DNA of 64,000 nt, taken from contig JANNBB010000026.1 of the NCBI GenBank assembly GCA_031385005.1, positions 35,669 through 99,668 on the forward strand. The letters run 5' to 3'. The DNA comes from Bacteroidota bacterium. GTDB lineage: Bacteria; Bacteroidota; Bacteroidia; AKYH767-A; 2013-40CM-41-45. The notes beneath the pieces are model-generated. The model had not been told where the DNA came from and made no database searches. It worked only from the letters and a program-made list of their open reading frames with translations. This document shows, piece after piece, positions 23,661-55,105 of this stretch (position 1 is the stretch's first letter; each line of letters begins with the position of its first letter). The translations under genes were made by a program, and so were the position numbers.

Positions 23661-25091
23661 ATGAATTTACGACTGCTCATACTTTGTCTGGTTGTTTTAA
23701 CTTCCTGCTTCTCATCATCATTTGGTGAACAACAATTCAATATGACAGGAACCATAGGCAACATTGAAAGTGCCTATACAGTTTTAACGAAAGATCCGGC
23801 ACAAAAATTTCTGATCGCAGGCGATGCATTGGGTTTTCTTTATTTTCATGATTTGAAAAGTGGGATATTGCTCAATAAAATTAAAGCTCATCAATCGGCG
23901 GTAAATCAATTGCAATTTAATTCTACCGGAAAACTTCTCATCTCCACAACATTCGACGGTGAAATAAAAATTTATGATTTCAGTAAAGAAAAAATCATTC
24001 AAGCCATTTATTCTCCTGATTATACAGGAATACATTTTGTGCTTTTTTCAATTGCAGACGGATTCATTTATTTTAATGGAAACAACCGCCTTTATAAAAC
24101 CCGATCTGACCTTACTCAGAAAGTCGATATGGTATTCTCTGAAAATGATACCATCAAGGATGCAGTAATAACAAGCGACAGAAGCGCTTTGATTTACGCT
24201 TGTGGGGGAAAATTAAAAATCGTCAATACCCGCACCGATCAGATCACACAGGAATTGTCAACAGGAATAAACCGAATAGAAAAAATTGCTCTCGTTAAAG
24301 ATTCTCTGCTTGCAACGTGGAGTCAGGATGGTACGATTTACTATTGGAAATACAACCTCGGACAAGTCGAAACTGTTCCTTCTTTTTTTTTAAAAGCCGG
24401 AAACCCAACAAGCATGAGCTTTTCTGATGATGGTCGATTTATGAGCAGCGGAAACATTGGCAACTGGGCCCGGGTCTGGAAGCCCATGGAGAGAAAAATA
24501 ATTCAGGAACTTTTCGCCCATACCAAAACCGTAACATCCACTTGTTTCGGAATTAATAGCCACTTCGTTTTCACTGCTGGCATGGACGGCAAATTGATTC
24601 TCTGGCGAAACGATACGCTACCTCCTTCTATCGTCGACACAATTAAAACGAAACCGGTTGTACAAGAATTAATAAAACCTACGGTAATTGATGTCGCCAC
24701 AGAAAAATCGGAAATTGTAATTGATGCAGCCAATATTCCCAGGATAATCTCCGGCAGAAATGTAATTTCCAATCAAAAAATAGAAACTACATCATCCGAA
24801 ATAAAAATCTTTGTTTTCGATAATTCCTATAACGATGGCGATACCATGTCACTGTTTTTTAACGGAATTTGGATTCTGGATCATTATGGCGTTACCAAAA
24901 TCAAAAAAGAAATAAAACTGCAATTAACTCCGAATACGAACAACTATTTAGTTCTTTTTGCCAATAATTTAGGTAAAAAGCCACCGAATACGGCTGCAAT
25001 CGAGTTTCAGGATGAGAAATCGAAAAGAATATTCCGATTGAGTTCAGACTTAAAGAGTTGCAGTGCAATAAATTTCTATTATAAAAAGTAA
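23661..25091 (+). CDS. WD40/beta-propeller repeat lipoprotein
   Basis: Lipobox LTSC. There are several WD-like blades (LATWSQDGTIYYWKY, FTAGMDGKLILWRND, STTFDGEIKIYDF). Confidence 0.6.
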   Translation: MNLRLLILCLVVLTSCFSSSFGEQQFNMTGTIGNIESAYTVLTKDPAQKFLIAGDALGFLYFHDLKSGILLNKIKAHQSAVNQLQFNSTGKLLISTTFDGEIKIYDFSKEKIIQAIYSPDYTGIHFVLFSIADGFIYFNGNNRLYKTRSDLTQKVDMVFSENDTIKDAVITSDRSALIYACGGKLKIVNTRTDQITQELSTGINRIEKIALVKDSLLATWSQDGTIYYWKYNLGQVETVPSFFLKAGNPTSMSFSDDGRFMSSGNIGNWARVWKPMERKIIQELFAHTKTVTSTCFGINSHFVFTAGMDGKLILWRNDTLPPSIVDTIKTKPVVQELIKPTVIDVATEKSEIVIDAANIPRIISGRNVISNQKIETTSSEIKIFVFDNSYNDGDTMSLFFNGIWILDHYGVTKIKKEIKLQLTPNTNNYLVLFANNLGKKPPNTAAIEFQDEKSKRIFRLSSDLKSCSAINFYYKK

Positions 25092-25156: not shown

Positions 25157-26482
25157 ATGAAAAAAATCATTACACTTATTTCATTATTAATAATTCTTGT
25201 AACTTTAGACCTCCGGGCACAAACATGGTTAGATATGGCAACAGGCCTTGGTGTATCAACTGAATCGGTAAAAGCAATTGCAGTTGCTCCCAATGGGACT
25301 ATTTATGCTGGCGGAACTTTTACAAATGCTACAAATTCTGCATTAAGTTATCTGGCTAAATGGAGTGGCACGGCTTGGGAAGCTGTTGGAACAGGAGTAA
25401 ACGGACCCGTGTATTCAATTGGAATTAAAACATCTTCTGAGGTATTTGTTGGCGGTGCTTTCACTTCTGCAGGAGGAGTTGCAGTAAACAACGTTGCAAA
25501 ATGGTCAGGATCCACCTGGTCAGACCTTGGCGGAGGTTTTAACGATCAGGTAAGCTGTATTTATGTGAGTTCAGTAACCGGCTCTGTATATGCAGGAGGG
25601 AAATTTTCTCTCTCAGGAACTACGGCTATGAACCACATTTCTAAATTGAATGGCACTACCTGGACTGCACTTGGCTCTGGAATTAGTTCCAGCGTTAATG
25701 CAATCATGGAAAATAATAGTATTCTTTATGCAGGAACTGAAGCATTATCTGCTCCCGTAAAAAAATTCGACGGATCTACATGGAGCGATGTTGCCGGTTT
25801 ATCGAGCGGAAAAGTATATGCTCTCGCATCTTTCAATAGCCAATTGTATGCCGGTGGAGATTTCTCTTCCCCTACTTTTGCAGCAGCACGTTACGATGGC
25901 ACCAATTGGAATACAATTGTTACTACGTTTGCTTCCGGTGATAAAGTATATGCCATGTTATCACGTTTTGGAATATTATACATCGGTGGTAAATTTTCAA
26001 ACCTCGGCATACCGGGATCACAATCGTCTAATGCTGCAAGAAAAATGTCTGCCAACAACCCTATTCAATCGATTACAGCTACTTCAAGTACTATCAATGA
26101 CGAAGTTTATGCAATCGGAAATCAGTCCGGCAAAGTAATTGTTGGCGGAAAATTCACCAACTTCAACCACATTGCCATTACTTCAACGACCATTGGAGTT
26201 GAAGAAATCAGCAGCCTTGTTTCAGGGTATAATTTTTATCCGAATCCGGTTAGTTCAAAAGCAAACCTGACTGTTCAAACAACTGAGAATCTTAAAAATC
26301 CTGCATTAAAAATCTTTGATTTACAATCCAGAATCATTGATAATCTGAACATCGATAGCTCAACCAATGGAAATGAAATTAATTTTTCTATTGATTGCAG
26401 CAGTTTACCAAAAGGAACCTACTATTATCTGCTTACTGATGAAGGCAACAATGTTCTTTCCCGTCAGTTTATCGTAGAATAA
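25157..26482 (+). CDS. Secreted repeat (delta-60/SBBP-like beta-propeller) protein with a T9SS C-terminal sorting domain
   Basis: Signal peptide. About 8 tandem ~50-aa repeats centred on the motif YAGG(T/K/D)F...W. A C-terminal T9SS CTD (YPNPVSSKANLTVQ...KGTYYYLLTDEGNNVLSRQFIVE). Confidence 0.75.
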   Translation: MKKIITLISLLIILVTLDLRAQTWLDMATGLGVSTESVKAIAVAPNGTIYAGGTFTNATNSALSYLAKWSGTAWEAVGTGVNGPVYSIGIKTSSEVFVGGAFTSAGGVAVNNVAKWSGSTWSDLGGGFNDQVSCIYVSSVTGSVYAGGKFSLSGTTAMNHISKLNGTTWTALGSGISSSVNAIMENNSILYAGTEALSAPVKKFDGSTWSDVAGLSSGKVYALASFNSQLYAGGDFSSPTFAAARYDGTNWNTIVTTFASGDKVYAMLSRFGILYIGGKFSNLGIPGSQSSNAARKMSANNPIQSITATSSTINDEVYAIGNQSGKVIVGGKFTNFNHIAITSTTIGVEEISSLVSGYNFYPNPVSSKANLTVQTTENLKNPALKIFDLQSRIIDNLNIDSSTNGNEINFSIDCSSLPKGTYYYLLTDEGNNVLSRQFIVE

Positions 26483-26610: not shown

Positions 26611-27987
26611 ATGAAGTATGCAATTATTGATATAGAAACTACCGGCAGTAATGCAGGTACCGGTCGCATTACCGAAATCGCCATCTATATACATGACGGT
26701 AAATCTATTGTCGATGAGTTTTGTAGTCTGATTAATCCGGAATGTGAAATTCCTCCATTTATTTCAAAGCTAACCGGAATTACCAATGAAATGGTTGAAA
26801 ATGCGCCAAAATTTTATGAGATAGCCAAACAAATCGTCGACATTACTGAAGACACCATTTTTGTAGCTCACAACGCTACTTTCGATTATAATTTTATCAG
26901 GCAAGAATATAAGTCACTCGGTTATAAATACGATAAAAGTTATTTATGCACCCTTCAGATGAGCAGGCAACTTATTCCCGGACACCCCTCCTACAGTCTT
27001 GGAAAGTTGTGTAGAAATTTGAATATTGAAATCGAAAATCGCCACCGTGCGCATGGCGATGCATTGGCTACGTCCAAACTTTTTGAATTGATTTTAAAAA
27101 GCAGCAATTCCGAAAATTTTCCCGAAGAGTTTATTCGGAACGATTATATGAATCTTCGCTTTCCTCCGGGATTTAACAGAAAAATTATTGAACAACTTCC
27201 TGAAAATTCCGGTGTCTATTATTTCCACGACTCCGCCGGAATTGTACTTTATATTGGGAAAAGCAAAAACATCAAAAAAAGAGTTTTAACTCATTTTAGT
27301 AATAAACAAACCCGTAGAGCAATTGAATTGCGAAATTCAATTTGCGACATAACATTCGAAGAAACAGGAAATGAATTAATCGCCCTCTTACTCGAATCTC
27401 AAGAAATCAAAAATCAAAAACCTTTTTATAACCGTAAACAAAAAGGCTCCTATCAAAATTATCACCTTATCTATTTTTACGATGAGCAGAGATATTTAAA
27501 TCTTGCCATCTCAAAAAAAATAGATGGTGCTGAATTACTTTGCACGTTAAATTCAAACGAAGAAGCTGAGGCGATACTGGAAAAACTCGTTTTGAAATTC
27601 GATCTTTGCAAAAAACATTGCGGAGCGCATGACATTTCACATTCTTGTTTTAGCTATTCCGTAAAACAATGTAAAGGCGCTTGCATCGGAAAAGAATCGC
27701 CTGAAAGCTACAATGAAAGAGTAAAAAAGGCCATTGAGACACAGAAATTCGAAAATCAAAATTTCATGATCATCGGAACAGGTCGAATCGAAAAAGAAAA
27801 ATCAATTGTCCATGTTGAAAAAGGCAAATACATGGGATTCGGTTATTTTGAACCGGAACTCTCCGGCGAAAATCCTGAAATTCTGAAATCTTTTATCAAA
27901 CCCGCAAACGATAACCGCGATGTCCGTCAGATAATCCGTTCATACATAAAAAAACCGGGTACCCAAGCACAGATCATTCATCATTAA
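26611..27987 (+). CDS. DnaQ-like 3'-5' exonuclease domain fused to a GIY-YIG nuclease domain
   Basis: Exo I motif IIDIETTG, Exo II FVAHNATFDYNF and Exo III HRAHGDALAT, then a GIY-YIG motif (GVYYFHDSAGIVLYIGKSKNIKKRVLTHF). Confidence 0.8.
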   Translation: MKYAIIDIETTGSNAGTGRITEIAIYIHDGKSIVDEFCSLINPECEIPPFISKLTGITNEMVENAPKFYEIAKQIVDITEDTIFVAHNATFDYNFIRQEYKSLGYKYDKSYLCTLQMSRQLIPGHPSYSLGKLCRNLNIEIENRHRAHGDALATSKLFELILKSSNSENFPEEFIRNDYMNLRFPPGFNRKIIEQLPENSGVYYFHDSAGIVLYIGKSKNIKKRVLTHFSNKQTRRAIELRNSICDITFEETGNELIALLLESQEIKNQKPFYNRKQKGSYQNYHLIYFYDEQRYLNLAISKKIDGAELLCTLNSNEEAEAILEKLVLKFDLCKKHCGAHDISHSCFSYSVKQCKGACIGKESPESYNERVKKAIETQKFENQNFMIIGTGRIEKEKSIVHVEKGKYMGFGYFEPELSGENPEILKSFIKPANDNRDVRQIIRSYIKKPGTQAQIIHH

Positions 27988-28008: not shown

Positions 28009-28581
28009 TTGAAAATCTATTTTATCCAATTTATACTTCTGCTTTCTTATTCCGGTTCAATTGCCCAAAGTTCTATTTTTCAAAACAGTTTACCGGATAT
28101 TGAAAATAAATCATTTTCTTTTTCCACGCTGCAACACAAAAAAGGAACAGTTATTGTTTTTCTATTGAGTGATTGCCCGGCCACTCAGGATTATACACGT
28201 TCGTTAAATATTCTTTCTAAAACCTATCTCTCCAATAACATTTCATTTGTCGGAATATTTCCGGGGAAATTCTCTTCAGACAGCGAACTGCTTGCCTTTC
28301 AGAAAATTTATAAATTAAATTTTCCATTATTAAAAGACAGCGAAATGACTCTGGCCAAATTCTTACAGGCGAAAACAGTACCCTCCTGCTATCTTTTAAA
28401 TGATACAGGCGAGATTGTCTATCAAGGAAGAATTGATGACTGGCTTTTTGCCCTCGGACGTAAAAAGAAAAGCGCTACTCAAAAAGATTTAGAAAATGCA
28501 ATTATCAGTTTAATAAAAAATCAACCCATAAAAATACCGGTAACACAGCCCATTGGATGTATTCTTGAATATGAAGATTAA
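28009..28581 (+). CDS. Thioredoxin-fold (redoxin/TlpA-like) protein with an atypical monothiol Cys-Pro-Ala-Thr motif, secreted
   Basis: Signal peptide. VIVFLLSDCPATQ sits where the WCxxC motif normally lies. Thioredoxin-like topology. The 3' end overlaps the next gene by about 29 bp. Confidence 0.6.
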   Translation: MKIYFIQFILLLSYSGSIAQSSIFQNSLPDIENKSFSFSTLQHKKGTVIVFLLSDCPATQDYTRSLNILSKTYLSNNISFVGIFPGKFSSDSELLAFQKIYKLNFPLLKDSEMTLAKFLQAKTVPSCYLLNDTGEIVYQGRIDDWLFALGRKKKSATQKDLENAIISLIKNQPIKIPVTQPIGCILEYED

Positions 28582-29965
28582 CAGAATTTTCACTTTTCCC
28601 GCTTTTACTATTTTTATTGTCATGAGCATTTTGTTTAGCTCTTGCATAAGAGAAAAGAATTCCAATCCTACTCCTGTTTTCTCCAAAGAAATTGCACCCA
28701 TCTTTTATGAAAATTGCTCTTCCTGTCATCGTCCGGGCTCCGGAGCCCCTTTTAATCTGATCACGTACGAAGACATTGTTAAGAAGATTCATACGGTTCA
28801 ACTTTCCATTAATGAAAGACTGATGCCTCCCTGGCCGGCTGATACTTCTTACTCTCATTTTGTCGGGGAAAAGGTTTTAAGTGAAAATGAAATACATCTT
28901 ATCAATCGCTGGATTGAAGCCGGATTTCCTATCGGAGATACCAATCAAATACCACAGCCTCCGGACTTTGGATTGAATACGGAAAAGAAAAAACCGGATT
29001 TTATTATACGCATGCGTCAACCATTTCTAATCAAAGGTGATAACACAGATAATTTTATCATGCTGAAGATTCCCTATGAATTTCCATCTGATACTTTTAT
29101 ACGGACAATCGAAATTGTTCCGGGAAATAAAAAGCTCGTTCATCATATCAATGCACATCTAATTCAATATTTCGCGGGAGCCAAAAAAGACAACCAAAAA
29201 GGAGTTGCCTATGTAAATACGGAGTTGCATGATAAAATTAGTGCATATCAATTACTTTCGTTACCCAACGACGACGGCTCCTATCCATTGCTCACCCCTT
29301 CGGTCTCCAATTATCTACCGGGTGTTGAAGCGGTATTTTATCCGCCCGGAATCGGCGGACTAAAAGTAAAGAAACAAGGAGCTATCTTGCTCGATAACAT
29401 TCATTATGGGCCGAGTCCTATCGATACATCCGATCAAACAACTTTTAATTTTTATTTCAGTCCGACAGCACCCGAGAGACCACTAAGGGAATTTATTATT
29501 GGAACCAGCGGTGTTTCTCCGATTATTCCGCCCCTTGTGATACCTCCGCATACGGTTAAGAAATTTATTTCGTCGTATCGGGTACCGGAAGACATTTCTC
29601 TTTTAACCATCAATCCACATATGCATTTGCTTGGTATTTTTTTCCAGGCCTATGTTCTCCTGCCAGATGGTGATACTCTCCCATTAATCCGCATTAAAAA
29701 ATGGGATTTTCGATGGCAATATTTTTACACATTTCCGAAAATTTTAAAAATCCCTGCGGGTTCTCTTATTCAAATGGAAGGTCTTTTTGATAACACAGAG
29801 AATAATCCTTTGGTTCCCTTTCATCCACCACGTACCATTTCGGAAAGAGCAGGAAGCATGCGCACAACCGATGAAATGTTTCAATTGATATGCACATACT
29901 TGCCATATAAACCGGGCGATGAAAATATTCGATTAGAAAACAAACAAACAGAAAAAGACGACTAA
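28553..29965 (+). CDS. Lipoprotein with an N-terminal c-type heme-binding motif (CxxCH) fused to a copper type II monooxygenase-like (PHM/DBH-like) domain
   Basis: Lipobox FSSC. A heme-c motif NCSSCHRPG is followed by ...LMPPWPAD, a Planctomycete-type cytochrome c-like layout. Candidate Cu-ligand motifs are LVHHINAH (HH), NPHMHLLG (HxH) and a downstream Met (LIQMEGL). Confidence 0.5.
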   Translation: MDVFLNMKINRIFTFPAFTIFIVMSILFSSCIREKNSNPTPVFSKEIAPIFYENCSSCHRPGSGAPFNLITYEDIVKKIHTVQLSINERLMPPWPADTSYSHFVGEKVLSENEIHLINRWIEAGFPIGDTNQIPQPPDFGLNTEKKKPDFIIRMRQPFLIKGDNTDNFIMLKIPYEFPSDTFIRTIEIVPGNKKLVHHINAHLIQYFAGAKKDNQKGVAYVNTELHDKISAYQLLSLPNDDGSYPLLTPSVSNYLPGVEAVFYPPGIGGLKVKKQGAILLDNIHYGPSPIDTSDQTTFNFYFSPTAPERPLREFIIGTSGVSPIIPPLVIPPHTVKKFISSYRVPEDISLLTINPHMHLLGIFFQAYVLLPDGDTLPLIRIKKWDFRWQYFYTFPKILKIPAGSLIQMEGLFDNTENNPLVPFHPPRTISERAGSMRTTDEMFQLICTYLPYKPGDENIRLENKQTEKDD

Positions 29966-30003: not shown

Positions 30004-30462
30004 ATGAAATCAAAAAAGATCATTATACCTTCAACAGAGAAAGAACTCGAAGCATATTATAAATTACGTTTTGAAGTCTTGCGAAAGCCCTGGGGACAAG
30101 TAGAAAATTCCACCCGAGATGAATGGGAAAACATTTCCATTCATGTCCTGATGCTCGATGAAAATGAAGAAGCAATTGCTGCCGGACGTCTTCAACTGAA
30201 TCCGGGAAATGAAGGCCAGATTCGTTCTATGGCCGTAAAAAAAGAATACAGAGGTCTGGGTCTGGGATCCGAAATCTTATTGTTCCTGGAAGAAAAAGCT
30301 AAAGAAAAAGCACTGACTTCAATTGTTCTGGACGCAAGAGAAAATGCCATCCCGTTTTACAAAAAACATGGGTATGTTTCGACAGGACCTTCATACCTGC
30401 TTTTTAATGAGATTCCACATGAACGCATGGAAAAAATCTTAAAAAATAAATCAGAACGTTAG
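30004..30462 (+). CDS. GNAT family N-acetyltransferase
   Basis: Acetyl-CoA binding motif A (IRSMAVKKEYRGLGLGSEIL). Confidence 0.8.
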   Translation: MKSKKIIIPSTEKELEAYYKLRFEVLRKPWGQVENSTRDEWENISIHVLMLDENEEAIAAGRLQLNPGNEGQIRSMAVKKEYRGLGLGSEILLFLEEKAKEKALTSIVLDARENAIPFYKKHGYVSTGPSYLLFNEIPHERMEKILKNKSER

Positions 30463-32349: not shown

Positions 32350-34392
32350 TTATGAAAGTTGAGAAAGTATCCTTTTAGCTTGTTCATTACTCTTATCTCT
32401 TTTCAAGACTTCCTTCAGATACATTTTAGCATCTTTCTCTCTGCCCAGAAAAAGCATTGCACCTGCTTTGTTTAAAAATGCCTGTACATTATCCGGATCC
32501 AGAGATAATGCTTTATCATACATTTTAAGTGCCGACTGAACATTCTTTTCGGCAGATAAAAGCAAAAATCCCAGACTTACATATGCGCTGCTGTATTTGG
32601 GATTTTCACGGAGAATAAACTCATAATTTCTTTTTGCTTCAGCTATCATTCCCGCATCAAATTGAGCACCGGCCAACTTATTTCTAAAATCGGTAACAAA
32701 TGGTGCAAGCTCTGTTGAATTTTCAAAATAGGAAACTGCTTTGGAATTATTACCGAGGGCTGCATAGGATTCACCGATTCGGTAAGAAGTCCAGGCATGC
32801 TCATTCATCAGGGATTTCTTGTCCAGATTTTCTAAATTGTGATTTTTACTTTCCGCATAGCTCACAACTTTTTTGTAATCATTTTTTAAAAATGCCCAAT
32901 GCACAAGCGAATGAAAATTGCGAAGAATACTGTCAACATTATTATCGACAAAATATTTCTTTGCAGAATCCAGAAATGAAGGATTATCAGAAAATTTTTC
33001 GAAATAGGAAAGAAATGCTTCTCCCTTTGAACGGTTATCAGGAGTTGAATTATTAATACAAATCAATCCGGCAAAATCTTTTATCCGTTTGACTTCCGCT
33101 TGAGTTTTAGGAATGCGAATATAATGATCGCTGGTGATAACATGTGGGATATCAGTTGCACCGCCTTTGGGCATATGACAGCTTATACAATTATCATTTG
33201 AAAGGGCTCTGACTTCCATGGATTCCTTGCAGGGAAGCTGATGAATTTTTGACTTACCGGATTGAGCATTTGCCGGCTGATGACATGAAATACATTTGGA
33301 ATTAAAATAAGAACTACGTGTAACAGTAACACTAACATGTGGATCGTGGCAGGTTATGCAAGTCAATGCATTTTGATAAGGCCGAAGAGATGATTGCTTG
33401 GCATTAATCTCCTCTGCCTTTCTTAGACTCTCTTGGAAACATTTACTCATCTTCAGTCTTTCCGCATGCGAAGCCATAATATGACTATCGTCATCGCCTT
33501 TATAGAGTGGCATGTAAACATCCATCACTTCTTTCAAATGCATGCCGGGCTTAAAGTCAAGAAACGATTTGCCCTCTTTTAAAATGGCATTACCTTGTAT
33601 ATGACACCGCTGACAAACATCCAGTTGTAAGTCGATCGGTAGTTTTGCAGGGTTGACAATCGAATAATCGATTTCCTCCTTAACATCGATTATCTTTCCC
33701 TCCTTTTTTTCGCGAATGTGCAAACTTCCCGGACCGTGACAACGTTCACAATCAATTCCATTAGCCACAAAAGAATATTTATTCTCTGACCCTTGGACCA
33801 TTTTCGGATAGGCATTGTGACAGGTCATGCATTCTAACCCTATTTTTCTTGAGAAACGACTATTATAACCGCCTTCAAATCCCGGAGGTAAATCCCACTT
33901 TTTTTTCTGAGTATAAAACGTTGCCGGCACTTGAAAAACATATCCGTTGACATTCATAAGATGCGAATTAGTATGCTGGCCGGAACCTACTATCCAATCT
34001 ACGTGCTCGGCACGTTTGAATAAAGTATCTCTACCTGAAAGACGGAACTCTAAAACAACTAAAGAATCATTTTTCCAAAAGGGATGATATTGCAGGTTTT
34101 TAAAAGTATCTGAAATAATTGCAATATCAGAAAACTTAGCAGACGACTTACTTTTCGTTGCACGGTCAAACGAAAGTCCCATTCCCGTATGAAGAAATGT
34201 TTCATATTTATCGGAATGACATTCTTTACAGGATAGAATTCCCGCATATTGAACGGTATCATTTAAGGAAGAATATTGCTTTTTGTCATCGGAATCTTCA
34301 TTATGAGAATTGCATGACATCAAATAAACAAGAAAAAAAATAAAACAGGAGCAAAACAAATTTCTTAATTGGCTCCTGTATTTAAATATCAT
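32350..34392 (-). CDS. Multiheme (7 CxxCH) c-type cytochrome lipoprotein with a C-terminal TPR repeat domain
   Basis: Lipobox LMSC. Seven heme-binding motifs: CKECH, CMTCH, CERCH, CQRCH, CITCH, CISCH and CISCH. The C-terminal ~200 aa are TPR-like (YAALGNNSKAVSYF..., AYVSLGFLLL..., AFLNKAGAMLFLG...). Confidence 0.8.
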   Translation of the reverse strand: MIFKYRSQLRNLFCSCFIFFLVYLMSCNSHNEDSDDKKQYSSLNDTVQYAGILSCKECHSDKYETFLHTGMGLSFDRATKSKSSAKFSDIAIISDTFKNLQYHPFWKNDSLVVLEFRLSGRDTLFKRAEHVDWIVGSGQHTNSHLMNVNGYVFQVPATFYTQKKKWDLPPGFEGGYNSRFSRKIGLECMTCHNAYPKMVQGSENKYSFVANGIDCERCHGPGSLHIREKKEGKIIDVKEEIDYSIVNPAKLPIDLQLDVCQRCHIQGNAILKEGKSFLDFKPGMHLKEVMDVYMPLYKGDDDSHIMASHAERLKMSKCFQESLRKAEEINAKQSSLRPYQNALTCITCHDPHVSVTVTRSSYFNSKCISCHQPANAQSGKSKIHQLPCKESMEVRALSNDNCISCHMPKGGATDIPHVITSDHYIRIPKTQAEVKRIKDFAGLICINNSTPDNRSKGEAFLSYFEKFSDNPSFLDSAKKYFVDNNVDSILRNFHSLVHWAFLKNDYKKVVSYAESKNHNLENLDKKSLMNEHAWTSYRIGESYAALGNNSKAVSYFENSTELAPFVTDFRNKLAGAQFDAGMIAEAKRNYEFILRENPKYSSAYVSLGFLLLSAEKNVQSALKMYDKALSLDPDNVQAFLNKAGAMLFLGREKDAKMYLKEVLKRDKSNEQAKRILSQLS

Positions 34393-34420: not shown

Positions 34421-34975
34421 CTATTGCTTTTTAATTAATTGCATATTGTATTCATCATAGTATTTTCCATAATCGAATATCCAATCCTGTTTCAATCCTG
34501 TAATTTCAAACCCTACGCGTTTAAAAAGAGCAACACTGTTTTCATTATCGATACGAACGTTTGCATAAATCTGATGCAGGTCAAGGATTTCAAATGCATA
34601 ATCGATAATTAGATGTAAAGCTTCGGTGGCAAAACCTCTTCCTCTATCCGCTTTATTGGCAATAAGAATTCCGATTCCGGCTCTTTTATTTTTGGGATCA
34701 AAATCGAAAAGATCAACACAACCGATAGAATAAGTCTTGTCGGATATGTTATCGTCCTCATCAAAATACTTCACATCGATCATCAACCGCAGTTGCTTAT
34801 TTGTATAAATATCCTGATGTGCCTGATTTACGAATTCTTCGAGAACAAATTTAGAAAAAGGCATCAACGTGCCGCTTACACTCCAAACAGAACTATCATT
34901 TTCCCATTTATACAAACGATTTAAATCCGCCGGCTCCAAAGCCCTAAGCTGAATCATTTCTCCGACAAGTTGCAT
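34421..34975 (-). CDS. GNAT family N-acetyltransferase (RimJ/RimL-like)
   Basis: 184 aa with a GNAT fold. Acetyl-CoA motif IANKADRGRGFATEAL. Confidence 0.75.
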   Translation of the reverse strand: MQLVGEMIQLRALEPADLNRLYKWENDSSVWSVSGTLMPFSKFVLEEFVNQAHQDIYTNKQLRLMIDVKYFDEDDNISDKTYSIGCVDLFDFDPKNKRAGIGILIANKADRGRGFATEALHLIIDYAFEILDLHQIYANVRIDNENSVALFKRVGFEITGLKQDWIFDYGKYYDEYNMQLIKKQ

Positions 34976-35078: not shown

Positions 35079-35852
35079 TTAAATAATCCCTTCAAAAACC
35101 ATTTGTGCCGGCCCTTCCAGCCAAACGTCTTCAAACCCGTCCTGCCGTCTCTTGTAATATACCCTTAAACGCCCTCCGGGAGTTTCCAAATCGCTCTCAT
35201 TGCCCAATTGGTAGCCTAAGAATGAAGCCGATAATGCAGCTGCAGTAACACCTGTGCCACAGGAAAGTGTCTCATCTTCAACTCCTCTTTCATATGTCCG
35301 AACGAATAGGTCGTTTTCTCTTTTTTCAACAAAATTGATATTTGTTCCAACGTCTTTAAATCGCTCATTGTATCGAACCTCTCGTCCTTTAGCAACAACG
35401 TCAATGTTTTTAACATCGTTAACAAATACCGTATAGTGAGGGGAACCGGTATTCATAAAAATAAAATCTTTTCCTGTCTCAACATTAAATACATCGCTCA
35501 TCTGCAAACGAATCAGATATGGGTTTTGGGAAATCACTAATGCCTTATGTGGGCCGTCAAAAGCATAAAACCCTTTATATGTTTGGGCGATACCGATTGT
35601 GTTTGCAAATGCTACTGCACATCGGCCGCCATTTCCGCACATAGAACCAATGTTTCCGTCGGAGTTGTAGTAAAGCATTTCGAAATCGTATCCACCTTTC
35701 TCTCTAATGAGGATAAGTCCATCCGCTCCTATACCAAAATGACGGTCGCAAAGTTCCTTCACCTGATTAACGCTCCACTGCATCTGACTTTTTCTTTCAT
35801 CGATTAAAATGAAATCGTTTCCTGTGCCATGATATTTTTTAAAAGGAATCAT
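35079..35852 (-). CDS. dapF: Diaminopimelate epimerase
   Basis: GNDF at the N-terminus, plus the two catalytic Cys motifs SMCGNGGRC and LSCGTGVTAAAL. Confidence 0.9.
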   Translation of the reverse strand: MIPFKKYHGTGNDFILIDERKSQMQWSVNQVKELCDRHFGIGADGLILIREKGGYDFEMLYYNSDGNIGSMCGNGGRCAVAFANTIGIAQTYKGFYAFDGPHKALVISQNPYLIRLQMSDVFNVETGKDFIFMNTGSPHYTVFVNDVKNIDVVAKGREVRYNERFKDVGTNINFVEKRENDLFVRTYERGVEDETLSCGTGVTAAALSASFLGYQLGNESDLETPGGRLRVYYKRRQDGFEDVWLEGPAQMVFEGII

Positions 35853-36751
35853 TTGGAGATTGAAGGTTTTTCGGTTTCAGGTATAAAGGGAGAAAAATTT
35901 TCAGATCGTTCGAGAGAAAACAATTCCTTACCGTATTTGAATAATAATTTATCGTTTCGCTTTATCAACTGAACAGCATCGGGTTCCTCGATTCCAAAAA
36001 GCACAATTCTATCATTGTAAAATTTGTAGCCTTTATAATTCACGGGAGAAACCCAAAATTCAATAATGTAATTGTCGTTCTCAATACTTTCATTGCCGGG
36101 TAAATCTGCCAGAGGGTTTAATGCTTCCGTAGTATTTTGAGCAATAGTATTATCTGAATTAATCGGTTTCTGTATTTCGTCACCTTCAACCTTAGCTTTT
36201 GTTACGATGCTTATTAGTAACTGATCTTTTTTGAAGACAATGTCCGGATTCTCTGAATTGATTGATGCGGTGTCGATGCCTACTGATTCTTTAATTGATT
36301 CAGGTGAAGGCGAAACAATATTCGATTTTGAGTTTTTTGAAACAGGAACTTTAATTTCTTTTTCATTTTCAGAGCCGGTATTTAAGTTAACAATTTCCGG
36401 TTTCTTCTGGCGAAAAATATCAAACAATAAATACCTCCTTTTATTTTCTGTTGATTCCTTACCTGAAAAATTCCAAATCGTAATTCCTGCGCCGGCCACA
36501 ACGAAAAAGAAAATAATCAATTTAAGCGCAGATGGAATTAGCGGCTTTTTGTAATCGATGTGCTTTTCGATTAGTTCGCGCAGCCGTGAATCTTCCGCTT
36601 TACGAATTCCATCAATTAAATTATTTTGAAAGGAGACCTGACTTTTAAATTCCTGATCTTCTTCCATCCTATCCATGAAATTTTTTAATTCCAAACCCGA
36701 CAATGAGTTTTGTAAATAACGATCAATCAACTTTCTGTTTTCAGATTTCAT
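35849..36751 (-). CDS. Putative anti-sigma factor (single-pass membrane protein)
   Basis: A cytoplasmic N-terminal ~70 aa, one TM helix (ALKLIIFFFVVAGAGITIW), then a periplasmic domain. The ATG overlaps the stop codon of the upstream sigma factor gene (ATGA). Confidence 0.5.
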   Translation of the reverse strand: MKSENRKLIDRYLQNSLSGLELKNFMDRMEEDQEFKSQVSFQNNLIDGIRKAEDSRLRELIEKHIDYKKPLIPSALKLIIFFFVVAGAGITIWNFSGKESTENKRRYLLFDIFRQKKPEIVNLNTGSENEKEIKVPVSKNSKSNIVSPSPESIKESVGIDTASINSENPDIVFKKDQLLISIVTKAKVEGDEIQKPINSDNTIAQNTTEALNPLADLPGNESIENDNYIIEFWVSPVNYKGYKFYNDRIVLFGIEEPDAVQLIKRNDKLLFKYGKELFSLERSENFSPFIPETEKPSISK

Positions 36752-37266
36752 TACAACTCCTTAGGATCAACAAACAATCGTGATTTAACAATACTTTCAA
36801 ATTGTGAAAATGCCTTAGTGAACTCGAACTCAGCGATTACAGGATTGCTGAAATTCTCGCGGGATGCAATTTGCTCAAAAGAAAGATTTTCAACATAGCG
36901 TTCAGAAAGAATTTTCTTAAACTCATCGTTTAATATGGAAAAACACCTGGCAACGACTTGTGCATCCTCTTCCTGTTTTTCTATTTTTTCATTTCCAATC
37001 GTACGGATATGATTAAGCTCTTCTTTTAAAGTATTGAAAAAGAAAATCTCCACATCGTTGTTTTTGGAAAAATCACTTTTTTGAACCTCACGAAATACCT
37101 TTAGCAATATATTACTGAAAACGGAAGGTGTATCGGAATCCTTTACCCCTTTTCTACGGAGCCACCTTCTGGAGGATTGAAAATATTTACCGGTCAGGTA
37201 AAACAAAACATCTTCGTCACCGTTCTGAATTGAAGTAATAATTTCCTGATTAGAATATCGGCCCAT
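36751..37266 (-). CDS. RNA polymerase sigma-70 family factor (ECF-like, regions 2 and 4)
   Basis: 171 aa. The region 4 HTH is LSERYVENLSFEQIASRENFSNPVIAEF. Translationally coupled to the downstream anti-sigma-like gene. Confidence 0.6.
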   Translation of the reverse strand: MGRYSNQEIITSIQNGDEDVLFYLTGKYFQSSRRWLRRKGVKDSDTPSVFSNILLKVFREVQKSDFSKNNDVEIFFFNTLKEELNHIRTIGNEKIEKQEEDAQVVARCFSILNDEFKKILSERYVENLSFEQIASRENFSNPVIAEFEFTKAFSQFESIVKSRLFVDPKEL

Positions 37267-50057: not shown

Positions 50058-52046
50058 ATGAAAAAAAGTTTACTATTAAGCCTGGCCGTTGCCCTTGGAA
50101 TTGGCGCAATCGCTCAGGTAAATCAAAGTCTGCCTGTCGGATTTCGCAAGGCAAATTTACCTGCTGCACTTAAAAACTACAGCGTAAGGGTACCTTACCG
50201 TTCTGAAGTAATTGACAACCAGGTTCCGCTTTCAACACTTGCTATTCCTCATGCAAATGCAAGAACAGCACAACCTGTAGCAAATGAAACAGTAATTGGT
50301 TGTACTTTTTATGATTTACAAACAAACAATTCAATCAGCAATCGTTTGGTTGTAAACACGGATGGTACAATTGCAGCTGCATGGACATTTTCACCGGATG
50401 CCATTCAAACGACAACTCCTGTATTCCCTAACCGTGGATCAGGTTACAATTACTATGATGGTGCAAACTGGAGCAATCCGGGTTGTCCAATGACTCGTGA
50501 AGAAGGAAGCGTTCGTACCGGTTTTACAAACATCGTAAACACGGCTAGCGGAAATGAAATGTTAATTGCTCACTCAGCCGTTACAGGTCAGGCATATAAC
50601 AGAATTTCTGTTGCCAGAAGAGCTACTAAAGGTACCGGTGCCTGGACAATTTCATATCCATGGGGATCTACATCTACTGATACTTGGCCAAAAGCTACTA
50701 GTGCCGGAGATAACGTTTACGTTGTTTTCCAAGGTCAAGGCGCCAGCGGTTCAACTACTGTAACTCCGGCTCCGGTTTTAGGTCAAAGCGGTCCGATTTT
50801 CTACTCTCAATCTACTGACGGAGGTGTTACTTTCTCTCCAAAGTGGGTAAATCCTCTAATCGATTCTACACAATACAAAGGTTTTGGCGGCGATAGTTAT
50901 TGCATCGATGCTAAAGACAGCATTGTTGTTCTCGGTTTTGGTGATACATATACCGATGTTGGTTTTTTAAAGTCAACAGACTATGGTCAAACATGGACGA
51001 AGACAATCATCCAAACACATCCTATTCCTTTTTATACTGACGATTCTTTAACAGATGAAAATCATGATGGAACAATCGATACATTATTTACAAATGGTGG
51101 TGACATCAAAGTGTTAATTGACAATAACGGTCTTGTTCATGCCTGGTTCTCTGCTTTACGTTACTACAATGATTCAGCTAGCGACGGTTTCTACAATCCA
51201 ATGTGGGGAACAGATGGTCTTGAATACTGGAATGAGAACATGCCTTCAAATGGTTATGTTGAAATTACGGCTTCTCAGGATTATAATGGAAACAACATAC
51301 TTGATGTTCCTTCCGATACATTCCCGGGAAATAGTCCATGTGATGTAATTTTGCCTTGGGGTGAGTATAGCGGTGGTATTACAATTATGCCATCTGCCGG
51401 AATTGATGCCTCAGGTAAAATTTATATGACCTATGCTACTATCAATGAAAGTGCTGATACTACAGATTTCCACGAAGCACACCGTCATATCTACATGATG
51501 ACTCTTGCACCACCTTACGATCCTGCAACTTGGACATATCCATACAACATTATCCCTTCACAAGCAGATGGTGGATTAGGAGAATATCAGGAAGGATCTT
51601 TCGCTTGTACAGGACGTTTAGTTGATAATACTTATGCTTACGTATTATATCAGCGTGACGATGCTCCGGGTCATGGTTTAGCTCGTGCAACTTCTTGCGA
51701 TCTTCACTTTAATCTTGGTAACTCAAGCGACATTTTACTTACAAAAGTTGAAACAGCTGTTGTAGGCGTAAAAAATGCTCCACAAAACGATTTATTTGTT
51801 AGCCAAAACTACCCTAACCCATCTGTTGGAATGACACACATCAACATTGGCTTAAAGAAATCAGCTGATATTCGTTTTGAAGTTTATGATATCATTGGAA
51901 AAGTTGTTTACTCAGAGACTCGTAAACAGTCTGTTGCAGGAAACCATACCATTAACCTGAACACAGCTTCTTTCGAGCCGGGAATTTATACCTACTCAGT
52001 AATTGCCGGTGGACAAAAATCTACACGTCAAATGATTGTTCAATAA
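50058..52046 (+). CDS. Secreted protein with a T9SS C-terminal sorting domain (function unknown)
   Basis: Signal peptide MKKSLLLSLAVALGIGAIAQ. The last ~85 aa form a T9SS type A CTD (NYPNPSVGMTHINIGL...GIYTYSVIAGGQKSTRQMIVQ). Confidence 0.75.
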   Translation: MKKSLLLSLAVALGIGAIAQVNQSLPVGFRKANLPAALKNYSVRVPYRSEVIDNQVPLSTLAIPHANARTAQPVANETVIGCTFYDLQTNNSISNRLVVNTDGTIAAAWTFSPDAIQTTTPVFPNRGSGYNYYDGANWSNPGCPMTREEGSVRTGFTNIVNTASGNEMLIAHSAVTGQAYNRISVARRATKGTGAWTISYPWGSTSTDTWPKATSAGDNVYVVFQGQGASGSTTVTPAPVLGQSGPIFYSQSTDGGVTFSPKWVNPLIDSTQYKGFGGDSYCIDAKDSIVVLGFGDTYTDVGFLKSTDYGQTWTKTIIQTHPIPFYTDDSLTDENHDGTIDTLFTNGGDIKVLIDNNGLVHAWFSALRYYNDSASDGFYNPMWGTDGLEYWNENMPSNGYVEITASQDYNGNNILDVPSDTFPGNSPCDVILPWGEYSGGITIMPSAGIDASGKIYMTYATINESADTTDFHEAHRHIYMMTLAPPYDPATWTYPYNIIPSQADGGLGEYQEGSFACTGRLVDNTYAYVLYQRDDAPGHGLARATSCDLHFNLGNSSDILLTKVETAVVGVKNAPQNDLFVSQNYPNPSVGMTHINIGLKKSADIRFEVYDIIGKVVYSETRKQSVAGNHTINLNTASFEPGIYTYSVIAGGQKSTRQMIVQ

Positions 52047-52975: not shown

Positions 52976-53629
52976 ATGCAACAAATTTTATTTCTGATCG
53001 ATAAAGAAATTAAACTTGAATGGAAGCAAAAGTATGCATTTAACGGCATTTTATTGTATGTAGGTGCGACCGTCTTTATTTGTTATTTATCTTTCCGTGA
53101 GATAGTAGATGTACCGGTATGGAATGCACTTTTTTGGATCATTCAGTTATTCGCGGGAGTTAATGCAATTGCAAAAAGCTTTCTGCAGGAATCAAGAGGA
53201 AGAGCATTGTATTATTATATAATTGCAGACCCCAGAGATGTCATTATTTCTAAAATCATTTATAATTTTATGTTGATGATGCTTTTATCTGTCATTAACT
53301 TTCTGTTTTATTCGGTATTAATCGGAAATCCGGTAGAAAATATTCCCATGTTTTTCTTCACCCTTGTCTTAGGAAGCATGGGATTGTCCTCTGTTTTATC
53401 GATGGTTTCCGCTATTGCATCCAAAGCAGGTCATAGCGCTGCACTGATGCCAATTTTGAGCTTCCCAATACTACTTCCGCTATTGATGACAACAATCAGA
53501 TTATCAAAAAACGCGATTGATGGTCTTGACTGGGCTGTTAATCAGCAATTTGTTATAATTCTGCTTTCCTTAAACATACTTATTATAGCTATGGGATATC
53601 TGCTCTTTCCTTATCTTTGGAAAGAATAG
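52976..53629 (+). CDS. ccmB: Heme exporter protein CcmB-like (cytochrome c maturation System I)
   Basis: 217-aa polytopic membrane protein with six predicted TM helices, sitting directly upstream of ccmC. Confidence 0.65.
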   Translation: MQQILFLIDKEIKLEWKQKYAFNGILLYVGATVFICYLSFREIVDVPVWNALFWIIQLFAGVNAIAKSFLQESRGRALYYYIIADPRDVIISKIIYNFMLMMLLSVINFLFYSVLIGNPVENIPMFFFTLVLGSMGLSSVLSMVSAIASKAGHSAALMPILSFPILLPLLMTTIRLSKNAIDGLDWAVNQQFVIILLSLNILIIAMGYLLFPYLWKE

Positions 53630-53697
53630 AAATGATGTTACACTTAACATGATATTTATAAAAAGAAATTATCGTAAAAAAACAATTCCCGACTTAA

Positions 53698-54378
53698 ATG
53701 CACGATAACAAAACAGATTCAATTTTAAACATCGCTTGGTGGAAATGGCTTTGCATTGTATTGTTATTATCCACCTTTTTTTGGGGGTTTCTTGTTCCTG
53801 TCCCTCGTTTACCGATTTTACATGAAAGTATCCGAAACCTATTTTTTCATGTAACGATATGGTTTGCCATGATTATTCTAATGACCTGTTCTTTGGTTTA
53901 CGGAATAAAATATTTACGCACCAACAATATTGACTTCGATATTAAGGCAGAAAAATATACGGTAACCGGAATTTTTTTAGGGATTATTGGATTAATAACC
54001 GGTAGCATATGGGCGAAGAATACTTGGGGTGCCTGGTGGATAAACGACGCCAAACTCAATGGAGCAGCTGCAGCCATGCTCGTATACCTGGCCTATATGG
54101 TGTTAAGAGGTTCAATCGATGATGAAACAAAGAGAGCACGAATTTCATCTGTTTATGGAATTTTTTCTTTTGTAATGATGCTTGTTTTTATCATGATTCT
54201 CCCTCGTCTTACAGTATCCTTGCATCCCGGTAACGGCGGGAATCCGGGATTTAATGCATATGACCTAGACAATACAATGAGAAAATTATTTTACCCGGCT
54301 ATAATTGCCCAGACTCTATTAGGTGTTTGGATTACAGAAATACTTGTACGTATACAACGACTAACCAATAAAGAATAA
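53698..54378 (+). CDS. ccmC: Heme exporter protein CcmC
   Basis: Trp-rich WWD-type region WAKNTWGAWWINDAKLNGAAA, plus conserved His residues. Confidence 0.8.
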   Translation: MHDNKTDSILNIAWWKWLCIVLLLSTFFWGFLVPVPRLPILHESIRNLFFHVTIWFAMIILMTCSLVYGIKYLRTNNIDFDIKAEKYTVTGIFLGIIGLITGSIWAKNTWGAWWINDAKLNGAAAAMLVYLAYMVLRGSIDDETKRARISSVYGIFSFVMMLVFIMILPRLTVSLHPGNGGNPGFNAYDLDNTMRKLFYPAIIAQTLLGVWITEILVRIQRLTNKE

Positions 54379-54383
54379 CAACT

Positions 54384-54617
54384 ATGATCAGGAAATATTT
54401 TTTAACTGTTTTTTCATTTTGTATTTTTTCAATTGTTAATCCATTACAAATTATTGCACAGGAAAGTGATATTGAAATGGCTGATGTCATGCGAGGCAAT
54501 GGAAAAATTTATGTAGTCGTTGCAGTGGTTGGAGTTATTCTTTCCTGCTTGTTAGTTTTCCTGATGATTATCGATAAAAAGGTCAGAAAACTTGAAAAAA
54601 ACCACAAGAAAAACTAG
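54384..54617 (+). CDS. ccmD: CcmD family protein (Bacteroidota alternative type)
   Basis: 77 aa. The motif MADVMRGNGKIYVVVAVVGVIL, then a single TM helix and a basic tail. Located between ccmC and ccmE. Confidence 0.6.
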   Translation: MIRKYFLTVFSFCIFSIVNPLQIIAQESDIEMADVMRGNGKIYVVVAVVGVILSCLLVFLMIIDKKVRKLEKNHKKN

Positions 54618-54650
54618 TTCTTGGGATTCCTGAATTGCCGAATTAAATCG

Positions 54651-54658
54651 TAAATTTG
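54651..54658 (+). promoter_or_regulatory. Bacteroidota -7 promoter element (possible internal promoter)
   Basis: TAAATTTG lies 21 nt upstream of the ccmE ATG. Confidence 0.3.
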
Positions 54659-54678
54659 CAATAATTAACCTATTCAGG

Positions 54679-55083
54679 ATGAAAAAGTCACATGTCATCG
54701 CATTAGTCATTATTGCATTAGCAATTGGTGCAATAATTAGCACACTGGCGGATTCCAGCACCTATGCCACATTTAAAACAGCGGAAGAAAATCCTAAGAA
54801 ATCATTCCACGTTGTTGGGAAACTAAACAAAAACATGCCTCAGGAATACAATCCTCAGGTGGATGCAGATGTTTTTTCCTTTTTTCTAATCGACAATGAA
54901 GGAAAAGAAAAAAAGGTCTTATTAAATAAAGCACGGCCTCAGGATTTTGAAAAATCAGAACAGATTGTAGTCATCGGAAAGATGCAAGATGACAATTTTG
55001 TTGCTTCTGATGTTTTAATGAAATGTCCTTCTAAATACAACAATCCGAAGGAAGACATGAAGAAGATGAGTTCAAGTGAATAG
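54679..55083 (+). CDS. ccmE: Cytochrome c maturation heme chaperone CcmE, CxxxY variant
   Basis: N-terminal TM anchor and an OB-fold core. The heme-binding site reads KCPSKY (CxxxY) in place of the canonical HxxxY. Confidence 0.7.
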   Translation: MKKSHVIALVIIALAIGAIISTLADSSTYATFKTAEENPKKSFHVVGKLNKNMPQEYNPQVDADVFSFFLIDNEGKEKKVLLNKARPQDFEKSEQIVVIGKMQDDNFVASDVLMKCPSKYNNPKEDMKKMSSSE

Positions 55084-55105
55084 TGTTTTTTAAAGTAATT
55101 TCAGA

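Follow-up and report, generated by a model that had tools for sequence, protein, structure and literature searches.

We analysed a 64,000-nucleotide stretch of DNA from a Bacteroidota bacterium (contig JANNBB010000026.1; the whole stretch is referred to here as the window), and in particular a gene on its minus strand (32350..34392) encoding a putative lipoprotein of 680 residues, in which seven CxxCH heme-binding motifs are followed by a C-terminal tetratricopeptide repeat (TPR) domain. Our findings point to a lipid-anchored electron-transfer cytochrome of the cell envelope, which would belong to the lineage of cytochrome c554, MccA and OcwA, be matured by the cytochrome c maturation (Ccm) system, and be docked to a partner by its TPR domain. 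We assign this reading a probability of roughly 0.55. The fusion of the two domains is, as judged from the sequences of the relatives, an ancient and fixed architecture of a large family.

The open reading frame starts with ATG, and translation of its coordinates places the CxxCH motifs at residues 55, 188, 215, 260, 345, 367 and 402 (CKECH, CMTCH, CERCH, CQRCH, CITCH, CISCH and CISCH, in this order), each position having been checked individually. All seven lie within the first 60% of the protein (residues 55-406), and by our estimate about 0.003 such motifs would be expected by chance in a protein of this size. The N-terminus is hydrophobic, with a core at residues ~14-24 of the hydropathy profile, and ends in LMSC27. 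Five Pfam multiheme models match above their gathering thresholds, each of them narrowly: Mtrc-MtrF_II-IV (32.9 bits), Cytochrome_C7 (30.2), Cytochrom_c3_2 (29.1), Cytochrome_C554 (26.6, covering hemes 2-3) and Paired_CXXCH_1 (22.2). Many Pfam TPR models match residues 537-679. In NCBIfam, no model comes near its cutoff for this protein; GSU2203 (NF041028) reaches 51.6 bits against a cutoff of 325, and DmsE (TIGR03508) 40.1 against 192.2. An earlier annotation of the window, made from the DNA letters and their translations (the sequence-only reading), had described a 680-residue lipoprotein with seven CxxCH motifs and a C-terminal TPR domain; the open reading frame, the motifs, Cys27 and the TPR domain were all verified, and the families it had named (Cytochrome_C554, Paired_CXXCH_1, Cytochrom_c3_2 and TPR) were all matched in Pfam, so that the CxxCH motifs do match known multiheme families.

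An AlphaFold2 model built from an alignment of 100 close homologues has a mean pLDDT of 83 and a pTM of 0.79. It begins with a signal helix, followed by a short helical stretch at heme 1 and a beta-sheet module at residues 75-167 (pLDDT ~80-94). The heme region, up to residue ~430, is predicted to be mostly loop and helix, with low confidence at residues 375-385 and 408-427. Residues 453-679 form about 14 helices at pLDDT above 90, which together make up a predicted TPR superhelix of ~230 residues.

Database searches yield more than 4,900 relatives of the protein. Of these, the top 120 are full-length, share 52-80% identity with it and come mostly from uncultured Bacteroidota; where relatives carry any name at all, it is either "tetratricopeptide repeat protein" or "multiheme c-type cytochrome". 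Conservation was examined in the close set used for the model (100 close homologues) and in a divergent set of 115 full-length representatives, 25-48% identical to the window protein. Exactly seven CxxCH motifs are present in 99/100 members of the close set and in 109/115 of the divergent set. The CxxCH residues themselves are kept throughout the close set (C405 in 99/100). The lipobox cysteine Cys27 is invariant in all 100 close homologues and present in 95 of the 115 divergent ones. A profile search with the heme module alone retrieved 1,576 clusters (at 50% identity) at E<=1e-30 and 3,397 at E<=1e-10. Full-length family members are nearly all 600-740 residues long with the heme module at the N-terminal side, and the TPR tail was kept in 10/10 distant members. 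This uniformity of length and order, together with the conserved TPR tail, indicates that the fusion is no local accident. The joining of a multiheme module to a protein-interaction scaffold, which the sequence-only reading had pointed out for the single gene, is thus kept throughout a large family. Its carriers are many, mostly uncultured, Bacteroidota of soil, freshwater and activated sludge (Taibaiella soli, locus L036, is a cultured one), and more distant kin occur in Ignavibacteriales and Acidobacteriota.

The kinship of the heme module was assessed by a profile search against the sequences of the PDB. The strongest matches were 6R2Q chain A (MtrA; E 8.8e-11), 6I5B (OcwA; 1.6e-9), 6QVM (OmhA; 5.6e-7) and 4RKM (MccA; 1.1e-6), and NrfA chains followed at E 0.007-0.05. 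These entries correspond to OcwA of Thermincola potens (6I5B; PMC6703420), the Shewanella Mtr complex (6R2Q; PMC7198977) and OmhA of Carboxydothermus ferrireducens (6QVM; PMC9250108). Our local PDB table lists 6r2q_A as "Cystathionine beta-synthase", which is apparently wrong for a chain of 333 residues rich in CxxCH. The matches to OcwA, OmhA and MccA all run through three common anchors whose order is unchanged: the heme 1 segment (YVGxxxCxxCH, or YxGxxxCxxCH in the comparison with OcwA and OmhA), the GIxCExCHGPGxxH heme, and the C-terminal CxTCHxPH ... CxxCHMP hemes (extending to CxxCHMPK in the comparison with OcwA and OmhA). Single anchor segments score 9-20 bits and are centred on the heme motifs. 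In 6I5B the heme 3 motif is matched by GITCEQCHGPGAKH, and corresponding segments match it in 6QVM and 4RKM; in these alignments CERCHGPGSLH is the best-conserved signature common to the window protein, OcwA, OmhA and MccA. In the divergent set, its residues C215, C218, H219 and H225 are invariant (115/115).

A second feature connects the family to OcwA. Both OcwA and MccA possess an extra beta-sheet domain (residues 75-156 of OcwA) that is missing from other NrfA-family proteins (PMC6703420). The beta-sheet module of the window protein (residues 75-167), which lies after heme 1 between C55 and C188, is placed as in OcwA, the two having been compared by position and secondary structure only. 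Cytochrome c554, MccA, OcwA and OmhA have been grouped as one clade, clade 3, in a study which argues that multiheme cytochromes evolve by grafting and pruning of modules (PMC9250108). Based on the collinear matches, weak as they are, and on the predicted beta-sheet insert, we hypothesise that the heme module is a remote relative of this clade, and that the family may be a pruned member of it, which would have lost two heme sites compared to the nonaheme OcwA and had a TPR domain grafted on. When a 145-residue fragment of OcwA, rebuilt from alignment output, was used as a query, no OcwA-family sequences were found.

Set beside individual relatives, the window protein shows a mixture of shared and divergent traits. 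With OcwA and OmhA it shares, besides the collinear anchors, an anchoring or attachment at the cell envelope; these are nona- and undecaheme cell-surface reductases, respectively, whereas the window protein has seven heme motifs and is a lipoprotein of a diderm Bacteroidota, not a cell-wall or S-layer protein of a Gram-positive bacterium. The position of the OcwA motif CLKCH (the fifth CxxCH by our count) is occupied by a lone cysteine, Cys318, in a weakly aligned segment (9 bits); the final heme of OcwA is absent, and Met71 aligns with an OcwA histidine. The C-terminal three-helix bundle found in NrfA, HAO, MccA and OcwA is missing, and the TPR superhelix stands instead. For MccA, the octaheme sulfite reductase of Wolinella succinogenes, the three collinear anchors lie at 142-169, 340-359 and 420-503, and both proteins contain conserved non-heme cysteines. 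Two non-heme cysteines are listed among the catalytic residues of MccA (PMC9250108, PMC6703420). The window protein has no CX15CH motif, and the catalytic residues of MccA could not be mapped on it. An alignment of Cys388 to a CxxCH motif of MccA, and any mapping of residues on the copper ligands of MccA, were dropped owing to ambiguous alignment and an uncertain offset between the numbering of the PDB entry and that of the paper. The likeness to cytochrome c554 (1FT5) consists in the Pfam match over hemes 2-3; neither MccA nor c554 has the same number of hemes, a TPR fusion or a lipid anchor. MtrA and the DmsE decaheme cytochromes share repeated CxxCHxPH units with the window protein. The MtrA matches, which include the best PDB E-value, are non-collinear, one region of the query matching several MtrA repeats; MtrA has ten hemes rather than seven and neither a beta module nor a TPR domain, and no gene for an MtrB-like porin lies near the window gene. 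As for NrfA, the window protein contains no CxxCK motif and no Pfam Cytochrom_C552 match.

Potential heme ligands are unevenly conserved. Seven further histidines, outside the CxxCH motifs, are essentially invariant in the close set. In the divergent set only H225, H352, H417 and H423 remain so, and H309 (85%), M71 (87%) and M407 (90%) are partly kept; H140 and H144 of the beta-module motif GSGQHTNSH, though invariant among close relatives, drop to 60% and 49%, respectively. An early assignment of all seven hemes as bis-histidine, made from the close set, was dropped on account of these last two values. With only four family-wide invariant extra histidines for seven hemes, some hemes would have to have a methionine, a cysteine or no sixth ligand. 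Cys318, which lies outside all CxxCH motifs, is invariant in 115/115 divergent members, equal to the heme-binding cysteines, and Cys388 is kept in 82%. Cys318 may ligate a heme, belong to a metal site, take part in a disulfide, or be left over from a heme site that was lost. The residues G136-S137-G138 of the beta module are conserved in 112-115 of the 115.

These observations leave room for an alternative in which the protein would be an enzyme rather than a wire: a multiheme reductase or oxidase, anchored in the membrane, whose substrate would be a small nitrogen or sulfur compound (nitrite, hydroxylamine, NO, sulfite or a thiosulfate-like compound). One heme would be penta-coordinate or oddly ligated, and the active site would be made up of Cys318 and the beta-module motif, in the manner of MccA (heme 2 with a Cys-bound Cu) or OcwA (hemes 2 and 5). 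The shortage of invariant histidines, the invariance of Cys318 and the almost invariant G136-S137-G138 all argue in this direction, and among the nearest relatives of known structure are catalytic proteins that have penta-coordinate hemes (PMC9250108, PMC6703420). On the other hand, the sixth ligands still lacking could come from M71, M407, H309 and C318 combined, leaving all hemes hexacoordinate, there is no CxxCK motif, H140 and H144 are not kept family-wide, no catalytic residue of either MccA or NrfA is mappable, and no neighbouring gene points to nitrogen or sulfur metabolism. We regard an enzyme of this kind as less likely than the electron-transfer reading, though as a serious rival to it. 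A bolder version, which we find slightly more doubtful, would see in the family a new catalytic branch of the MccA/OcwA lineage: a lipid-anchored heptaheme enzyme, embedded among housekeeping genes across Bacteroidota, in which a His/Cys-ligated heme or a Cys-metal site would be built from Cys318, possibly joined by Cys388 or Met71. At this site a periplasmic redox reaction so far unrecognised would take place, and the TPR domain would bring in the electron donor.

Maturation of such a cytochrome could be provided from within the window. System I cytochrome c maturation genes (52976-57541), encoding CcmB, CcmC, CcmE and CcmF, lie 18.6 kb from the cytochrome gene, in agreement with the maturation cluster that the sequence-only reading had placed at about 18 kb; no ccmA, ccmG or ccmH/I gene adjoins this cluster. 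The genes next to it encode a DUF2520/Rossmann protein, a HAD hydrolase, a UbiA prenyltransferase and Maf. The TPR domain itself bears some likeness to those of CcmI/CycH and NrfG: the Pfam model TPR_CcmH_CycH reaches 29 bits in the window protein and 43-56 bits in three distant family members (gathering threshold 42). CcmI-type chaperones, in contrast, have no hemes of their own, and the cytochrome gene shows no conserved linkage to ccm genes. A link to cytochrome biogenesis through this model was considered and rejected as cross-talk within a Pfam clan, since these residues are matched far better by generic TPR families.

In the electron-transfer model that we favour, the protein would be exported and lipidated at Cys27, and the Ccm system of the same window would attach seven c-type hemes at the CxxCH motifs. 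The hemes would then form an electron-transfer chain in a module remotely akin to c554, MccA, OcwA and OmhA, as suggested by the shared beta-sheet insert between hemes 1 and 2, the CxxCHGPGxxH heme and the CxxCHxPH and CxxCHMP hemes. Compared to OcwA two heme sites have apparently been lost, and a TPR superhelix may take the place occupied there by a three-helix bundle. The TPR domain would dock the heme chain to a candidate partner protein, and electrons would be passed on either within the periplasm or on the cell surface. In addition, one site whose ligation differs (through Cys318 and/or Met71) may react with a substrate. Several points weigh against this model. The sequence similarity to OcwA and MccA is weak and lies largely around the heme motifs, and MtrA scores slightly better overall, through repeated motif-level matches. 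No partner of the TPR domain, electron donor or acceptor, or substrate is identifiable, and the conserved neighbours are housekeeping genes, silent on redox function. In the clade of the window, the 79-bp gap between the cytochrome gene and the adjacent response regulator gene contains no terminator-like hairpin, and co-transcription with the regulatory genes is therefore possible (a scan for sigma-70 promoters is uninformative for Bacteroidota, and only the missing hairpin was used). Finally, the residues following Cys27, which are K-rich and then D/E-rich, resemble the export signal of Bacteroidota lipoproteins only loosely, and the protein may lie either on the periplasmic face or at the cell surface.

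This loose resemblance also bears on a further alternative, in which the protein would be a terminal reductase for extracellular electron transfer (EET), comparable to OcwA and OmhA: a lipoprotein of the outer leaflet reducing Fe(III), Mn(IV) or humics at the cell surface. Its closest collinear solved relatives, OcwA and OmhA, are indeed surface iron reductases, and metagenome-assembled genomes (MAGs) of Bacteroidota from activated sludge are reported to encode secreted multiheme cytochromes (PMC11495043). Nevertheless, the likeness to the export signal is weak, neither an outer-membrane conduit (an MtrAB-like porin-cytochrome pair) nor any other EET gene occurs as a conserved neighbour, the context being one of housekeeping genes, and many lineages in which the family is common are not known to respire metals. 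We consider a surface reductase of this type quite improbable.

On its 3' side the cytochrome gene is followed, on the same strand, by the genes of a two-component system (TCS), a response regulator (RR) and a histidine kinase (HK) that overlap by 23 bp. Transcription proceeds along the minus strand in the order DapF, GNAT, cytochrome, RR and HK, the first four being separated by gaps of 103, 28 and 79 bp. The sequence-only reading had correctly described both TCS genes as lying on the same strand about 80 bp away; it had exchanged their coordinates with one another, and had placed the cytochrome downstream of them, while on the minus strand the cytochrome is transcribed before RR and HK and is thus upstream. 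From this adjacency it had drawn the suggestion that the cytochrome may be a redox sensor feeding the TCS. Spelled out, the cytochrome would be a periplasmic sensor signalling through its TPR domain to a kinase that has no sensor of its own. The kinase has two transmembrane segments, centred at residues 34-46 and 67-77, connected by a loop of about 11 residues, and no periplasmic sensor domain according to its hydropathy, and such a kinase would need an accessory sensor. The shared strand and the short gap without a hairpin fit the suggestion as well, and the adjacency is kept in relatives with cytochromes 80%, 64% and 52-54% identical to that of the window.

Wider comparison speaks against a sensory circuit. 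On the cytochrome side we examined 80 loci from genomes of different species, 59 of which have readable downstream sequence; an RR/HK homologue beside the cytochrome was found in 0/80, and in 0/59 of those readable downstream. On the TCS side we used 80 metagenome loci with kinase orthologues 45-73% identical, in most of which RR directly precedes the kinase; 39 of them extend at least 2.1 kb upstream of RR. The cytochrome adjoins the orthologous TCS in 3/39 only (L086-L088), all of them nearest relatives with RR at least 78% identical, and is absent from the other 36. Where the cytochromes are 80% and 64% identical and the adjacency is kept, a whole block of ~18 kb is collinear with the window, so that recent common ancestry accounts for the adjacency; in L082, cytochrome and RR are 300 bp apart. 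The TCS itself is probably PhoB/PhoR-like. Its top NCBIfam matches, all below their cutoffs, are PhoB (TIGR02154, 227.9 bits against 296.2; a Bacteroidota PhoB model, 217.9 against 270), PnpS (266.8 against 400) and PhoR (239.3), phoU lies directly upstream of the orthologous TCS in 6 loci of other lineages, and genes for a pst-like permease and ATPase occur in L101, L123 and L138, though neither phoU nor pst genes are present in the window. Kinases of the PhoR type lack a periplasmic sensor domain and signal through Pst and PhoU. The missing sensor domain therefore calls for no cytochrome as an accessory, and we hold the sensor hypothesis to be very improbable. The neighbourhood of cytochrome and TCS is, on these comparisons, a gene-order trait of one narrow clade with no sign of a functional link. 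The docking cytochrome of the sequence-only reading, a heme module tethered to a protein-docking domain, is thus a sound reading, and its connection to the TCS finds no support beyond the immediate clade.

Other genes were seen in the vicinity of the TCS. In one metagenome locus (L090, 3516-6665) the RR-HK pair is directly followed by a gene for a homologue of MltG/YceG, with no cytochrome in the 3.5 kb upstream, which suggests that the pair and the cytochrome were shuffled independently around the position of MltG. A 470-residue open reading frame in the window (28553-29965, plus strand) contains a single CSSCH and the histidine-rich motifs HHINAH and HMHLLG, has no Pfam or NCBIfam match, and overlaps a gene for an AhpC/TSA-like thioredoxin-fold protein (28009-28581, plus strand). 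Both genes, and a GNAT gene at 30004-30462, travel with the TCS in L082, L085 and L087 (the sequence of L086 ends before the AhpC-like gene), and in the Acidobacteriota locus L074 a 26%-identical copy sits 6 kb away from the cytochrome.

The neighbours that the cytochrome does keep are of a different kind. The string HtrA(-)/DapF-GNAT-cytochrome is common to about 30 of the 80 species loci, and GNAT is directly upstream of the cytochrome in 23 of 56 Bacteroidota loci, mostly at a distance of ~2 bp. The next gene downstream encodes the MltG/YceG homologue in 29/59 loci and AroB in 11/59, with gaps of mostly -14 to +8 bp. In the AroB clade (11 loci) the upstream gene is TypA, on the other strand. 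This string of housekeeping genes suggests that the cytochrome gene is probably expressed constitutively. Since TPR lipoproteins such as NlpI and LpoA act as scaffolds, one may also think of a redox-responsive scaffold for cell-wall enzymes, acting in the envelope together with the products of DapF, GNAT and MltG. The order DapF-GNAT-cytochrome-MltG recurs in ~25-30 species with the tight spacing just described, suggesting co-transcription, and NlpI, LpoP and ActH, TPR lipoproteins which scaffold or activate peptidoglycan enzymes, are among the structural and NCBIfam matches of the TPR domain. However, these TPR matches are generic, the common denominator of the two gene contexts, with AroB and TypA in one of them, is housekeeping rather than the cell wall, no MltG gene occurs anywhere in the window, and we know of no precedent for a multiheme protein in peptidoglycan synthesis. 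A role in cell-wall synthesis thus appears highly unlikely.

Just upstream of DapF in the window, two open reading frames of 171 and 300 residues (35849-37266, minus strand) overlap by one base, have no Pfam match, and have conserved counterparts at this place in both L082 and L087; on visual inspection, the former resembles a small sigma-factor-like protein and the latter has a membrane segment. In two long-read MAGs, which are the closest species-level relatives (L053, 8001-9997, and L056, 8001-9961; 62-63% identity), the cytochrome frame is split in two, either as a frameshift pseudogene or by an assembly indel. The Acidobacteriota loci among L064-L080 hold distant relatives, 25-33% identical (a range into which the Bacteroidota locus L075 falls as well), and often a second paralogue in the same locus. 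Full-length copies stand in tandem in L071, L073 and L078, lie ~1.7 kb apart in L080, and are accompanied by a copy of ~400 residues in L064-L068. These paralogues adjoin FG-GAP and UnbV_ASPIC genes and genes of CarboxypepD_reg outer-membrane barrels, a context quite unlike the housekeeping context in Bacteroidota.

Elsewhere in the window, a C-terminal Por_Secre_tail domain (the sorting domain of type IX secretion) is found in two proteins encoded on the plus strand (25157-26482 and 50058-52046), which fits the Bacteroidota origin of the DNA. A WD40-repeat protein (23661-25091) and a fusion of RNase T with GIY-YIG (26611-27987) are encoded near the Por_Secre_tail genes. The coordinates of the main features are collected in the table.

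Table. Coordinates, strand and basis of assignment of the cytochrome gene, its protein segments, its neighbours and the ccm genes in the window
Feature	Position	Strand	Basis
Heptaheme cytochrome c-TPR lipoprotein gene	32350..34392	minus	ORF translation, Pfam heme and TPR matches, >4,900 homologues
Predicted signal peptide and lipobox, residues 1-27 (..LVYLMSC27)	34312..34392	minus	Cys27 conservation, hydropathy
Multiheme module, residues ~40-430, seven CxxCH	33103..34275	minus	Translated motifs, Pfam, PDB profile search
Beta-sheet module, residues 75-167, between heme 1 and heme 2	33892..34170	minus	AlphaFold2 strands
GSGQHTNSH motif within beta-sheet module	33961-33987	minus	
Heme 3 motif CERCHGPGSLH, residues 215-225	33718..33750	minus	Invariant residues, PDB alignments
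Lone Cys318, outside all CxxCH motifs	33439..33441	minus	Conserved in 115/115 divergent members
C-terminal helical/TPR domain, residues 453-679	32356..33036	minus	About five canonical TPRs in residues 531-665
OmpR/PhoB-family response regulator, 228 aa	31584..32270	minus	Pfam Response_reg and Trans_reg_C
PhoR/PnpS-like histidine kinase, 370 aa	30494..31606	minus	Pfam HisKA and HATPase_c
GNAT acetyltransferase gene	34421..34975	minus	Pfam Acetyltransf_3; 28 bp upstream of cytochrome
DapF (diaminopimelate epimerase)	35079..35852	minus	Pfam DAP_epimerase
ccmB	52976-53629	plus	Pfam CcmB
ccmC	53698-54378	plus	Pfam Cytochrom_C_asm
ccmE	54679-55083	plus	Pfam CcmE
ccmF	55106-57541	plus	Pfam CcmF_C

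Our literature searches, which paired multiheme or heptaheme cytochromes with TPR, lipoprotein, CXXCH or Bacteroidota, turned up no account of the family; work on MAGs from activated sludge reports undescribed secreted multiheme cytochromes in Bacteroidota in general (PMC11495043). The superfamily to which the heme module belongs is recognisable and known. What sets the family apart is the conserved combination of a heme module with a TPR domain, undescribed as far as these searches show, and an invariant lone cysteine. Family members carry generic database names only. Most work on multiheme cytochromes has concerned metal reducers and organisms specialised in nitrogen and sulfur cycling, and here a seven-heme TPR fusion sits among housekeeping genes in many Bacteroidota. 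For annotation the lesson is a negative one: the neighbouring TCS is a feature of gene order, not evidence of a sensory circuit, and should not be read as a cytochrome-linked redox sensor. If the tentative idea of a catalytic branch were true, the redox chemistry in the envelope of a phylum dominant in the environment would gain a component that is widespread and has so far gone unnoticed. If the kinship to OcwA, MccA and c554 holds true, the family would provide a natural example of heme-site loss and domain grafting, the "grafting and pruning" proposed for multiheme cytochromes (PMC9250108), and would point to an unrecognised redox function in the envelope of Bacteroidota.

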